Positions 36,368 through 46,780 of a stretch of DNA of 64,000 nucleotides are shown one piece after another. The notes below the pieces were generated by a model. That model was not told the origin of the DNA. It worked only from the letters and a program-made list of their open reading frames with translations, and made no database searches. How positions within the stretch are numbered: the stretch's first letter is position 1; every line of letters starts with the position of its first letter. A program made the translations under genes and the position numbers. The stretch lies in the NCBI GenBank assembly GCA_963664435.2, contig CAXXKM010000001.1:1312001-1376000 (forward strand), in the 5' to 3' direction. The stretch is from Longimicrobiales bacterium (lineage in GTDB: Bacteria > Gemmatimonadota > Gemmatimonadetes > Longimicrobiales > Gaopeijiaceae).

Positions 36368-37189
36368 GTGCACCAACCCCGACCCCTCCTCGAACTCACC
36401 AACCTCACCCTCCGCTTCGGGGGCGTGACCGCGCTCTCCGGTCTCGGCATGGAGGTGCGCGAGGGTGAACTCCTTGCGCTGATCGGGCCCAACGGGGCGG
36501 GCAAGACCAGCGTTCTGAATTGCATCTCCGGGCTCTACCGGCCGCGGGAAGGGAGCATCACCCTGACCGGCCGCGACGGGACCCGGCACGCTCTCCACCG
36601 CCTGTCCCCGCACCGCATCGCAGCGCTCGGGGTCGCGCGCACCTTCCAGAACATCGAGCTGTTCAAGCACATGACCGTGCTCGATAACCTGATGCTGGGC
36701 CGGCACGTGCACATGAAGGGAGGGGTGCTCAGCGGAGGACTCTACCTGGGCCGCCAGCGCCGCCGCGAAATCGAGCACCGGCGCTACGTGGAGGAAGTCA
36801 TCGACTTCATGAACCTCGAGCCGCTGCGGAGCTCGGTGGTCGGGAACCTGGCATACGGGAATCAGCGGCTGGTCGAGATGGCGCGCGCGCTGGCGCTCGA
36901 CCCGCACATTCTGCTGCTGGACGAGCCCACGGCCGGGATGAACGCGGAGGAGAAGGAGTCGATGGCGCGCTTCATCCTCGACGTGCACGAGGAGCGGGGC
37001 ATCACCGTGGTGGTCATCGATCACGACATCGACGTGATCATGGACATCTCGGACCGGGTCGTGGTGCTCGACTTCGGACAGCGGATCGCGCAGGGAACGC
37101 CGGAGGAGGTGCGGAACCATCCGGCGGTGATCGACGCCTATCTGGGACGGGCGCGGGGAGAGAGCGAACCCGTCCCGGTCACACCCTAA
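36368..37189 (+). CDS. LivG-type ABC ATPase
   Basis: LRFGGVTAL, GPNGAGKT, ARTFQNIELF, LLDEPTAGMN, VIDAYLG. Confidence 0.92.
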   Translation: MHQPRPLLELTNLTLRFGGVTALSGLGMEVREGELLALIGPNGAGKTSVLNCISGLYRPREGSITLTGRDGTRHALHRLSPHRIAALGVARTFQNIELFKHMTVLDNLMLGRHVHMKGGVLSGGLYLGRQRRREIEHRRYVEEVIDFMNLEPLRSSVVGNLAYGNQRLVEMARALALDPHILLLDEPTAGMNAEEKESMARFILDVHEERGITVVVIDHDIDVIMDISDRVVVLDFGQRIAQGTPEEVRNHPAVIDAYLGRARGESEPVPVTP

Positions 37190-37201
37190 CGTAACGGCGG
37201 A
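37183..37201. other. Left attachment site (attL): ACCCTAA-CGTAACG-GCGGA
   Basis: 7-bp core 37190-37196 directly repeated at 46767-46773; abuts the livG stop and lies ~90 nt past the integrase stop. Confidence 0.75.
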
Positions 37202-37256
37202 AGCGGTTGGGATTCTATCTTGTGCGCTCACTTGACCTTACAGGATTGACAGGTCG

Positions 37257-37280
37257 GATTCCCGCCACTTGACTCCCGCC
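37257..37280 (+). repeat. Putative integrase arm-type sites GA(T/C)TCCCGCC x2
   Basis: 37257-37266 and 37271-37280; third copy at 46627-46636. Confidence 0.6.
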
Positions 37281-37292
37281 GATTCGCGAGCC

Positions 37293-44365: not shown

Positions 44366-45724
44366 GTGACCCGACCAAGACTCGCCAGACTCATCCTGTT
44401 GCTTGCGGGGCCTCTGACCCTGCTGTTCACGGCCTGCGGCCAAGACAACCCCACCACCGTAGCGCCGTACCTCGTTGGGACGGGCGCTCGGGACTACGCC
44501 GATTCGACCCACAGCGACGTCCAGAGGGTCGCCGACACCCTGTACGGCCACATCAAGATCGGGACGCTCGATGCAGATGACGACGTGACGGTTTCCAGAG
44601 ACACCATCTTCAAGGATACGGTGGCGATCGGCTATCTGGTGGCAGTCAACGACTCCGCGTCCAGCTATTTCTCGGCCAGCAACGACAACCCGTTCGGTGT
44701 ACCGCCCGGAGAGTGCTGGGTCGAAATCGACATCGTGTGGTATCCGGGATCCGGCCTCATCAAGTCCATCAAGATCACCGTCTTGTACTGCGTCGCGGAA
44801 GAGAGCGACGAGCCTGGGGGAGGCTCCACTGCTGACACGGTGGCCGTCAAGCTGGCGTGTACGGACCAGCCCGAGCGGGGCGAGTCCGTCGAATGCACGT
44901 TCTCTGTGACTCCGTCGTCACTCACGGTCACCAACATCGAGTGGAAGTTCGTGGGACTTGAGCACGTCAGGGAGAACACGAAGCGGGGCGGGATGTCGTG
45001 GGGTGGTGTCGCCGTAGAGACAGGCACCATGACGGTTTCGGCCGACGTGGGTGGTGTCAACCGCAAGGCCGAGCAGAACATTTTTGTGCTCAGCCGGGGA
45101 TGGACATGGGATGCGGATACTGCTTGGAACGACAGTACCGACCCGTGCAGGGCTTGGGGAACCTCATGGGGCAGGGTCGTACCCAGCCCCTGCGGTCCCA
45201 CCTTCTTCAACGTCGGTGAGGGGAGCTATGTGGTGGGGGCGGGGGATGGACCCTGGGCCGGCGTCTTCTACGTCGACAGCGCGAATGCCGACGTGGTGGC
45301 TCGCGCCATGTACCGTCCCTCGCTGACGGAGAATGGTATCGAGTATTCGATTGCGGGTGTCTCGCAACTGGTCGCGGCCTGCGGATCGGGCGTAAGCGCC
45401 GCCAATGAGTACACGATCAACCTGGAGTGCTTGGACGTGGAGGGATACAAGAGTCTCCGAAACCACATCCACACCCATGAAACCGGGCACCTGAACGACA
45501 TCTCCAGCGTCGTCGCCGGTCACAACATCTACCTCCATTGGGACGGCCTCGTGTCCACGTCGGCAGAAGGGGTCGATAGAGTGGCGAAGGCGTTGGCGGA
45601 GAAAGCGCACACAGACTTGCTGGGACGTGCCGCCGCCCGTGATGCGGCGGAAACCTACCCTGGCTGGCTCTTCTGGCTCTACACGGGCTCATGGGACTGG
45701 GACGTCCACACAACACCTTGGTGA
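44366..45724 (+). CDS. Lipoprotein with Ig-like central region and C-terminal HExxH motif
   Basis: GTG start; lipobox FTAC; HTHETGH. Confidence 0.7.
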   Translation: MTRPRLARLILLLAGPLTLLFTACGQDNPTTVAPYLVGTGARDYADSTHSDVQRVADTLYGHIKIGTLDADDDVTVSRDTIFKDTVAIGYLVAVNDSASSYFSASNDNPFGVPPGECWVEIDIVWYPGSGLIKSIKITVLYCVAEESDEPGGGSTADTVAVKLACTDQPERGESVECTFSVTPSSLTVTNIEWKFVGLEHVRENTKRGGMSWGGVAVETGTMTVSADVGGVNRKAEQNIFVLSRGWTWDADTAWNDSTDPCRAWGTSWGRVVPSPCGPTFFNVGEGSYVVGAGDGPWAGVFYVDSANADVVARAMYRPSLTENGIEYSIAGVSQLVAACGSGVSAANEYTINLECLDVEGYKSLRNHIHTHETGHLNDISSVVAGHNIYLHWDGLVSTSAEGVDRVAKALAEKAHTDLLGRAAARDAAETYPGWLFWLYTGSWDWDVHTTPW

Positions 45725-45741
45725 ATGGGAAGCGAATCGCG

Positions 45742-46578
45742 ATGAGAAGCTCGAACACACTTTTGGTGACGGCACTGGCCTCTCTGCTGGTCCCGGCGTT
45801 ACTTGCCGGGCAGGAGAAGCACAAGCCGCTTGTCTTCCCTCCTCGCTCCGCGTCAGCCGAAGCGATTCTGGCGGCCCTTGCCAGTGGTCTGGATCCGTCC
45901 TCGCCCCAGGATGGAGAGGTAGCGGACCATGACTTTCTCGGTCGGACAAGCCGGTTCGCCGAACTGTTCCTCACCCAGTACACCGGTGACCGGTACCGTG
46001 ACCATCCAGATCACTTTGGCACCCGGCCGCAGGCTGAGCTGGATGCTTTCGCTGACCGGCTGGTTGCCATCGTCCTGGCCCATCCCCAGAGCGAGGTCGC
46101 TTGGGAGATCGGTTCGGCACTGAGCGGGGCTGGCGCCCACTACCATGACGAAGACCCTGAGCGAACGCGCTACGCCGGTGCCTTTGACTCACTCGAGCGA
46201 ATCTATATAGCTGGAGCTCGATCTAATCTGGGCTTCTACTACCTGATCCGTCTCGATCCCCGGCGCGCCATCGAAGTGGGGATGCGCAGGCTAGAGGCAG
46301 GCCCGTGGCAGGACGAATTCGATGCTTGCCTGTTCCTTCACAAGGCTTGGTCATTCGGCAAAGTGGTGGTTCTGGACGGTGAATTGGCGTTCTATTACGA
46401 GGGCGTGGACCTGTCCCCCGGATCGGAAGAGCGGGAGCTGTCGTTCACCGCATATGAAGAAATCCAAGAGGTGGGTAAGCAGCTTCACGAAGCGGGATAC
46501 CTAACCAGAACTAATCCCTGCCCCGACCCGTTTGGCGTCCGCGAGGCATTGGCCCATGAGGGGGGTGGTGCCATCTAA
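45742..46578 (+). CDS. Secreted hypothetical protein
   Basis: Signal peptide ending LLA-GQ; starts 17 nt after the upstream stop. Confidence 0.65.
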   Translation: MRSSNTLLVTALASLLVPALLAGQEKHKPLVFPPRSASAEAILAALASGLDPSSPQDGEVADHDFLGRTSRFAELFLTQYTGDRYRDHPDHFGTRPQAELDAFADRLVAIVLAHPQSEVAWEIGSALSGAGAHYHDEDPERTRYAGAFDSLERIYIAGARSNLGFYYLIRLDPRRAIEVGMRRLEAGPWQDEFDACLFLHKAWSFGKVVVLDGELAFYYEGVDLSPGSEERELSFTAYEEIQEVGKQLHEAGYLTRTNPCPDPFGVREALAHEGGGAI

Positions 46579-46761
46579 AGACCGGATCCGTGGAAGGGGG
46601 GTTCGGACGTGCCGGGATTGGGGTCCGATTCCCGCCGGTTGGTGTGATTTGCCCGCTGTTTCATAACCCTGAAGTCCTGTATTGGCTGACGGCAAGAATG
46701 GCAGATCGTGCAGCCCTGATTGAACTTAGGGATCTCTTGCCGTCATTCGCGGTTTGCTTGA

Positions 46762-46780
46762 TCCGCCGTAACGTCAGGGT
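46762..46780. other. Right attachment site (attR): TCCGC-CGTAACG-TCAGGGT
   Basis: Shares the core with attL; flanks are reverse complements of the attL flanks (17/19 as an inverted repeat). Confidence 0.75.

Follow-up and report, generated by a model that had tools for sequence, protein, structure and literature searches.

A relaxase-less integrative island at livG and its integrase clade, which appears to use a TipA-type MerR operator as attachment site

A 64,000-nucleotide stretch from the genome of a Longimicrobiales bacterium (assembly GCA_963664435.2, contig CAXXKM010000001.1, positions 1,312,001 to 1,376,000; hereafter the window) carries an island at positions 37183..46780, which is 9,577 bp in size from core to core and lies between a host livG-type ATPase gene and an acyl-CoA synthetase gene. 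We consider it probable that the island is a relaxase-less member of a large integrative mobilizable family, and that the clade to which its integrase belongs uses the operator of the drug-sensing TipA-type MerR regulator of the host as bacterial attachment site (attB). As judged from sequence and context, the attB palindrome ACCCTRA-CGTWACG-TYAGGGT is a TipA/Mta/SkgA-type MerR operator. The genome comparisons show the identity of this target, the single clade that uses it, and the occupation of the tipA promoter in both orientations; the activity of the island, its transfer route and any role of TipA in recombination are what we infer.

The published promoter probes of mta, tipA and skgA (TTGACCCTAACGTTGCGTGATTGTTT, TTGCACCTCACGTCACGTGAGGAGGC and TTGACCCTCACGCCACGTCAGACCTG, respectively; PMC7762955) match the palindrome. 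An exact-21-mer scan of the genome collection identified at least 104 loci, and the following figures apply among the matches listed. The exact 21-mer occurs in actinobacterial, coriobacterial and clostridial records; in the 18 such records outside Gemmatimonadota, it carries a TTG prefix in 15 and has a MerR match within 300 bp in 15. The corresponding values are 6 and 3 for the 62 Gemmatimonadota-type records (Longimicrobiales and three bins labelled Gammaproteobacteria), and 7 and 5 for 24 untitled loci. In this genome, there are ten intact copies with at most two mismatches, nine of which are empty and one of which was rebuilt by an element; six further palindromes are occupied by paired ends, and one orphan right end was also found. 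The rebuilt copy reads TTGACC, 19 bp and TACCTT directly before a MerR gene, and the G011 orthologue of that gene contains MerR and TipAS domains. At tipA the operator is located in a promoter with -35 box, 19-bp spacer and -10 box, and the palindrome appears to form the promoter of the host tipA-like gene; the copy at livG has no -35 box. Taken together, the probe match, the TTG and MerR context in other phyla and the host tipA promoter argue that the palindrome is a TipA-type operator.

The original prediction described two island ends sharing a direct 7-bp core, and both end sequences were found, at 37183-37201 and 46762-46780. As it also claimed, GA(T/C)TCCCGCC is present at 37257, 37271 and 46627, and the two ends have one 15-mer in common, at 37252 and 46622. 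The features at the two ends are listed below.

36368..37189, plus strand: host livG-type ABC ATPase gene (Pfam ABC_tran and BCA_ABC_TP_C); its orthologues lack the island
37183-37201, plus strand: attL, composed of host arm ACCCTAA, 7-bp overlap CGTAACG (37190-37196) and element arm GCGGA
37257..37280, plus strand: two direct GAYTCCCGCC repeats, putative integrase arm-binding sites, 63 bp from the core family-wide
37293..38453, minus strand: intact tyrosine integrase, 386 aa (PF00589 above cut-off)
46627..46658, plus strand: right-end arm-type repeats, with one copy at 46627 and a degenerate copy at 46649
46701..46713, plus strand: GCAGATCGTGCAG motif, conserved, 66-67 bp before the core in right ends
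46762-46780, plus strand: attR, composed of element arm TCCGC, overlap CGTAACG (46767-46773) and host arm TCAGGGT
46881..48800, plus strand: host acyl-CoA synthetase gene (PF00501), which adjoins livG in relatives without the island

The stop codon of livG, TAA (37187-37189), lies inside the left arm of the target palindrome. The GCAGATCGTGCAG motif recurs just before the integrase start and is a candidate site for an accessory protein. About 95 extra bases follow attR (46781-46880) that are absent from the livG-synthetase junction of relatives, and no promoter or terminator consensus was found in the attR surroundings.

The window alone is weak evidence for the ends, because the 17/19 inverted pair that they form ranks only 10th among the 228 inverted pairs in the window and CGTAACG occurs there 7 times. 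We accept the ends as real because paired ends throughout the genome share cores at fixed spacing. Profiles of both ends identified 31 left and 46 right ends in the genome. These gave 22 element pairs, all with an exact 7-bp direct core (22/22), and 18 of the 22 have identical spacing, with the core 63 bp from the arm pair on the left and 67 bp from the GCAGATCGTGCAG motif on the right. A further 9 left and 24 right ends remained without a partner or an anchor. The CGTWACG core was found in 6 of the 22 pairs, and the remaining 16 carry 15 different cores. The island ends are thus confirmed. The overlap is direct and of the 6-8-bp class, with arm repeats at a fixed distance, as in arm-binding-domain integrase systems, and this supports the lambda-type architecture that had been proposed for the island. 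The palindromic phage-type circle junction (attP), which had been taken as a family trait, did not generalize: perfect 5/5 arms are present in 2 of the 22 paired elements and in 1 of the 6 with the CGTWACG core, and GCGGA is next to the core at attL in just 14 of 31 distinct clade members.

The catalytic residues of the integrase (R235, K262, H332, R335, W356 and Y366) are conserved in at least 95% of 94 integrase rows. An arm-binding domain is predicted at the N-terminus; the model contains three strands and one helix at residues 22-64, with pLDDT of 62-74. This model was built from a 22-row alignment and replaced a poor single-sequence model; its quality is moderate, and the N-terminus has no Pfam arm-domain match. 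The best Foldseek match of the integrase model is full-length lambda Int. At E up to 1e-30, the genome contains 29 integrase matches (about 29 paralogues), and a representative search returned a broad family of 675 clusters. In 40 regions of relatives, all 28 distinct integrases of at least 82% identity sit at a CGTWACG core. More distant integrases have other cores, several of which recur with the same flanks in different genomes; these other clades therefore look site-specific, and the idea that the non-palindrome members are promiscuous was dropped. In the tree of 94 integrases, the 41 with the CGTWACG core form one branch (support 99/95), the core is found in 0 of the 53 integrases outside it, and five residues mark the clade. 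Palindrome targeting thus appears to belong to one clade of a larger family, the other clades of which use tRNA genes, coding genes and sibling elements.

Several other target choices were noticed in the family. Members of other clades lie, by eye, at tRNA-like genes (G000 C3:42365, C3:1151046 and C3:1153557; L103, L104, L106, L110 and L122). Another clade targets a second repeated palindrome, TCTGC-CATTTTG-GCAGA, which occurs in local clusters (G000 C2:426697/410300, C2:986928, C3:705275 and C3:713651). One clade, with cores CTACCCA, CTACGCA and CGACGCG after AGCCAGC, inserts in the sites of siblings that resemble an origin of transfer (oriT), comparable to the streptococcal IME_oriT (G000 C3:366051; L061, L078 and L065); the corresponding site here is window 40330-40372. 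In G000, nested elements were also observed, inserted inside the integrase gene of a sibling or just before its start (C1:1570007-C2:1086105; C2:112658; C2:839147). The linkage of the end of C1 with the reversed end of C2 by three nested pairs, and of C3 with C1 by one more, points to reversed C3, C1, reversed C2 as the order of the contigs.

Among relatives, 26 full-length tipA orthologues were found, 25 of which have a scorable promoter, one being at a contig end. An element occupies 14 of the 25 promoters, with its right end beside tipA in 6 and its left end in 8; the other 11 are empty. The end profiles confirm the 8 left and 6 right ends, one of them weakly. In nine of the 14, the arm of the element itself supplies TTGACCCT and the -35 box is rebuilt; the elements at the other 5 have arms like those of this island, and the -35 box is removed. 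In G005, two right ends face each other with a single core between them, the arrangement that an element inserting in reverse at a resident attR should leave. Insertion in either orientation, which the original prediction regarded as conceivable, is thus supported by the 6 versus 8 orientations and by the head-to-head right ends. Either orientation would be available, since the overlap is its own reverse complement apart from the middle A/T, a base that varies in elements and sites; in G009, the cores of an element pair differ at this base. Inversion of an integrated copy, which would need a mismatch, was not seen. At the tipA site of this genome, elements have accreted in tandem.

The livG locus was compared in 16 orthologous loci of the genus, and the island is present in none (0/16). 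A palindromic site lies at the livG stop in 9 of the 16, and this supports a palindromic attB outside tRNA genes; the other 7 have no such site, which indicates that the site arose or was lost within the genus. Of these 9 sites, 6 have the junction toward the synthetase gene and 3 run into the 3' end of another gene; seven carry T as middle base, one carries A and one C. The empty site that had been foretold was therefore recovered in part: the palindrome stands at the locus in 9 of 16 relatives, but the exact predicted 21-mer was not seen at livG in the 16, which are other species of 85-90% identity. Between species, gene order breaks at operator copies, for example where livG is joined to the 3' end of a response-regulator gene (L028, L030, L031, L007, L008, L010 and L013), and the copies may be rearrangement points. 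Upstream of livG, window 33376-36268 has lower GC and contains one GmrSD-domain gene and one AlbA_2/HATPase gene split over two frames; it is possibly another island.

Most operator copies have no promoter. The motif occurs in 16 of 18 genomes of the genus and in 1 of 12 others, with zero for the reversed control; in the phylum, 23 of 301 genomes have it, and two or more copies, up to 34, were found only in two genera of one family (G019 enters the genus, integrase and phylum tallies only as a zero). All 26 genomes with a full-length tipA orthologue carry operator copies, 24 of them at least two. Among 25 genomes without a tipA match, 22 carry none, and the three exceptions are one 67% complete genome and two single promoter-type copies; where tipA is partial or distant, 2 of 7 genomes have copies. 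G154 and G211 contain 34 and 2 copies, respectively, with no family integrase found with this query, and G006 contains 18-20 family integrases with neither tipA nor operator copies. By these counts, the operator copies appear to track tipA, not the integrase. The copies are mostly intergenic, some are in frame inside genes, and they lie in variable insertions; a TTG prefix is present at 3 of 57 sampled copies. Apart from orthologues and a single 14-bp pair, the 38 sampled sites have no flanking sequence in common, and a unit like a repetitive extragenic palindrome or a miniature inverted-repeat transposable element was rejected on this ground. At six orthologous sites, picked for matching and thus subject to selection bias, the motif differs at 4 of 126 positions versus 74 of 252 in ungapped flanks. 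No obvious clustering near one chromosome region was seen by eye in G154 and G005. Since kin are not independent, the copy counts favour, and do not prove, a host function. In three genomes (L163, L084 and L082), the operator lies in different insertions in the same short region of one aldo/keto-reductase-like gene. One copy is located between atpG and atpD (G000 C1:368134) and is conserved in G005.

Between its ends, the island contains the following features.

38450..38545, minus strand: C-terminal remnant (ending QIVQSITRGIE) of a 129-aa open reading frame (ORF), which in full length overlaps the integrase start in siblings
38624..38751, plus strand: partial copy of the conserved repeat of the family (about 300-400 bp)
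39442..40008, both strands: two overlapping, facing repeat copies (39442-39846, plus; 40008-39600, minus)
40135..40236, minus strand: frameshifted 5' remnant of mobC, by DNA alignment to an intact sibling mobC
40330..40372, no strand assigned: oriT-like site, a conserved motif with a varying inverted repeat, found just upstream of mobC in relaxase-bearing siblings
40558..40800, plus strand: FitA-like ribbon-helix-helix antitoxin (PF22513)
40813..41238, plus strand: PIN-domain (VapC/FitB-type) toxin (PF01850), forming a toxin-antitoxin pair with the former
41342..41992, plus strand: cargo, putative lipoprotein, no family match; signal and lipobox by eye
42095..43816, minus strand: cargo, 573-aa putative lipoprotein; nearest Atlas cluster unnamed, mostly Gemmatimonadota
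44366..45724, plus strand: cargo, putative lipoprotein, no family or Atlas match
45742..46578, plus strand: cargo with signal-peptide-like N-terminus, no family match

No Pfam, NCBIfam or PHROGs family was found for the cargo proteins. The 129-aa ORF is a candidate excisionase and has no family match. The conserved repeat has 33 profile matches in the genome and no Rfam match, and the sequence upstream of the integrase shows no better folding than its shuffled versions (z -0.54). The intact sibling mobC scores with PF05713 and PF21983. The motif of the oriT-like site has 15 matches in the genome; it is conserved upstream of mobC-relaxase in siblings and was not matched to a known oriT. The genome encodes 13 relaxases (PF03432), 9 of which are within 1.6 kb of a family integrase, and several sibling elements carry their own relaxase. 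In siblings, mobC is followed by an overlapping relaxase gene with two ORFs nested in its frame, one being MobD-like below cut-off. Within 4 kb of the 33 clade rows, which include overlapping loci, we found a relaxase in 3, the oriT-like motif in 8 and the full candidate excisionase in 1. None of the 13 PF03432 matches lies inside the island, so the earlier statement that it has no recognisable relaxase holds; yet the oriT-like site and the frameshifted mobC remnant are present. The view of a minimal family without transfer functions did not survive, as siblings carry mobC-relaxase and the island keeps these two traces.

We propose that recombination would proceed through the 7-bp overlap. The tipA promoter may be the ancestral site of the clade, because the six members of the sister branch either sit at tipA or have arms of the promoter type; members with TCCGC/GCGGA arms, such as this island, would be derived and would also use the scattered promoterless operator copies, and the island would sit in one of them at the livG stop. 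Excision might depend on the excisionase of a sibling. Conjugative movement would require a sibling relaxase acting on the oriT of the island together with an incoming conjugative machine, and the toxin-antitoxin pair may stabilise the island. By analogy, the island would work like the integrative elements with an oriT termed iOriTs, its own oriT being putative. A much broader scheme we regard as improbable. In it, the lineage not only uses the operator as a multi-copy, orientation-free attB, but its integrase and TipA would also interact functionally: the tipA promoter would be switched off or rebuilt by elements, recombination would be gated by TipA occupancy and its ligand, and dozens of promoterless copies would act both as sites of rearrangement and as decoys or landing pads.

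Several observations weigh against the proposed reading. The palindrome at livG is absent from 7 of 16 relatives. The candidate excisionase, besides matching no family, is full-length near only 1 of 33 clade rows. The genome, which is 96% complete, gave no match to the coupling protein PF02534. Among the 15 joints listed of 61 from four runs of contigs, none was that of a circle or an empty site; contigs drop rare forms, and the best-holding runs may include the source sample. Both orientations at tipA could come from polymorphism of the middle base alone, with no mismatch tolerance. Rows of the tree were picked by closeness to the query integrase, which enriches the clade, and four identical rows were dropped; 4 of the 22 element pairs depend on assumed contig joins.

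Other explanations concern the operator copies. Element footprints are a possible source of them: elements could have captured the tipA operator and re-deposited it, so that the clade makes its own landing pads. Multi-copy sites restricted to the two genera that yielded the clade, copies often in lineage-specific insertions and some in frame inside genes, an operator arm held inside the end of some elements, and synteny breaks at 4 of 20 sites with both flanks mapped would all fit. We find this account rather doubtful, since copies persist in G154 and G211 where no family integrase was found with this query, follow full-length tipA (26/26 genomes) and are missing from 22 of 25 genomes without it, including integrase-rich G006; they share no flanking sequence, the motif is better kept than its flanks at the six sites picked for matching, and we found no simple recombination route that would yield a complete new palindrome. 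It is also conceivable, and in our judgment unlikely, that operator-bound TipA recruits or blocks the integrase, that its ligand gates insertion or excision, and that the promoterless copies are decoys sparing the tipA promoter. In its favour, one 21-bp sequence is both integrase core site and operator, elements occupy 14 of 25 tipA promoters and cost 5 of them the -35 box, and the extra copies mostly lack the promoter-making TTG; however, the mere five residues that mark the clade fit an ordinary change of DNA specificity, and copies persist where the clade was not found.

The state of the island itself also allows different explanations. That this copy is a dead, att-flanked remnant, no longer excising or transferring, we think somewhat unlikely: its mobC is frameshifted, the relaxase is absent, the candidate excisionase is reduced to a tail, and in contigs of three runs the depth of the cargo is close to that of its flanks, with no joint of a circle among those listed, but the integrase gene is undamaged and keeps every catalytic residue, the cores and arm sites are preserved at both ends, and G005 has, at another site, a 28-kb element whose ends are the same and whose integrase is 97% identical. 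Identical cargo, at a depth near that of the flanks, is present in public runs, one of which bears the label sponge metagenome. It is very unlikely that the island is a phage satellite or prophage relic that travels in capsids. One viral-metagenome run holds parts of the stretch, although it barely covers the cargo; among 7 proteins, PHROGs gave only integrase matches and one weak antitoxin match, no replication, packaging or structural phage gene was found in the island with Pfam and PHROGs, 0 of 13 viral matches to the attP-like motif have the arm motifs of the family, and siblings carry mob genes. A CIME (cis-mobilizable element), defined by lost integration genes and kept att sites (PMC5704250), was rejected as the integrase is intact.

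Integrases usually target tRNA genes or conserved gene ends; in an operator-targeting clade that inserts in both directions and rebuilds or removes the tipA promoter, mobile DNA is coupled directly with the switching of a regulator. For the study of specificity change, the family offers a natural series, with dozens of fixed 7-bp cores, proteins 70-90% identical and five clade-marking residues. Actinobacteria and clostridia also have the exact 21-bp target before MerR genes, so the integrase may be usable as a tool in them. A separate question, on the chromosome-wide role of a TipA-like protein, is raised by the scattered copies that lack a promoter.

Palindromic non-tRNA sites (PAISt), integrative mobilizable elements (IMEs) that target oriT, and relaxase-less islands are already known; the operator of a regulator appears to be an unusual landing site for an integrase. 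In the literature searched, we found no report of an integrase with a MerR operator as attB; the TIGER/Islander tables may already list such sites. Like the lambda-type tyrosine integrases (PMC8138268), the island has a three-domain integrase, inverted core sites round a 7-bp overlap and direct arm repeats; different from them, its target is a multi-copy transcription-factor operator, and both orientations occur at one site. The autoregulated promoters of TipA, Mta and SkgA (PMC7762955) share the operator, the -35 box overlapping the left arm, the 19-bp spacer and the downstream MerR and TipAS gene, but here the operator appears to double as attB and has up to about 30 promoterless copies per genome. 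Like IMEs (PMC5704250), the family combines a site-specific integrase with a mobilisation module and accretes in resident att sites, and the streptococcal IME_oriT (PMC5704250, PMC7563843) also targets a functional DNA site that is possibly multi-copy. Most IMEs are single-copy and only two specific ones multicopy (PMC5704250), whereas about 29 paralogues are present in one genome here, and six or seven of these occupy a single regulatory palindrome at its different copies. PAISt of Streptomyces turgidiscabies (PMC4057263) likewise uses a tyrosine recombinase and a palindromic non-tRNA crossover sequence; its site, however, is an 8-bp palindrome in the bacA 3' end, 1 of 178 copies is used, it is not an operator, and the paper makes no use of the word orientation. 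The mobC of siblings, with its overlapping relaxase and two nested ORFs, is like the ColE1 mobC-mobA/BD module (PMC9282650, PMC5935869), except that it rides integrative elements. The iOriTs, integrative elements with an oriT and no relaxase or mating apparatus from six nosocomial species (bioRxiv 10.64898/2026.01.13.699239), resemble the island in that it is att-delimited, has an oriT-like site and accessory cargo, and lacks a relaxase and a type IV secretion system (T4SS) as mating apparatus; different from iOriTs, the candidate relaxases here are located on related siblings in the same genome, and the oriT is a putative one.

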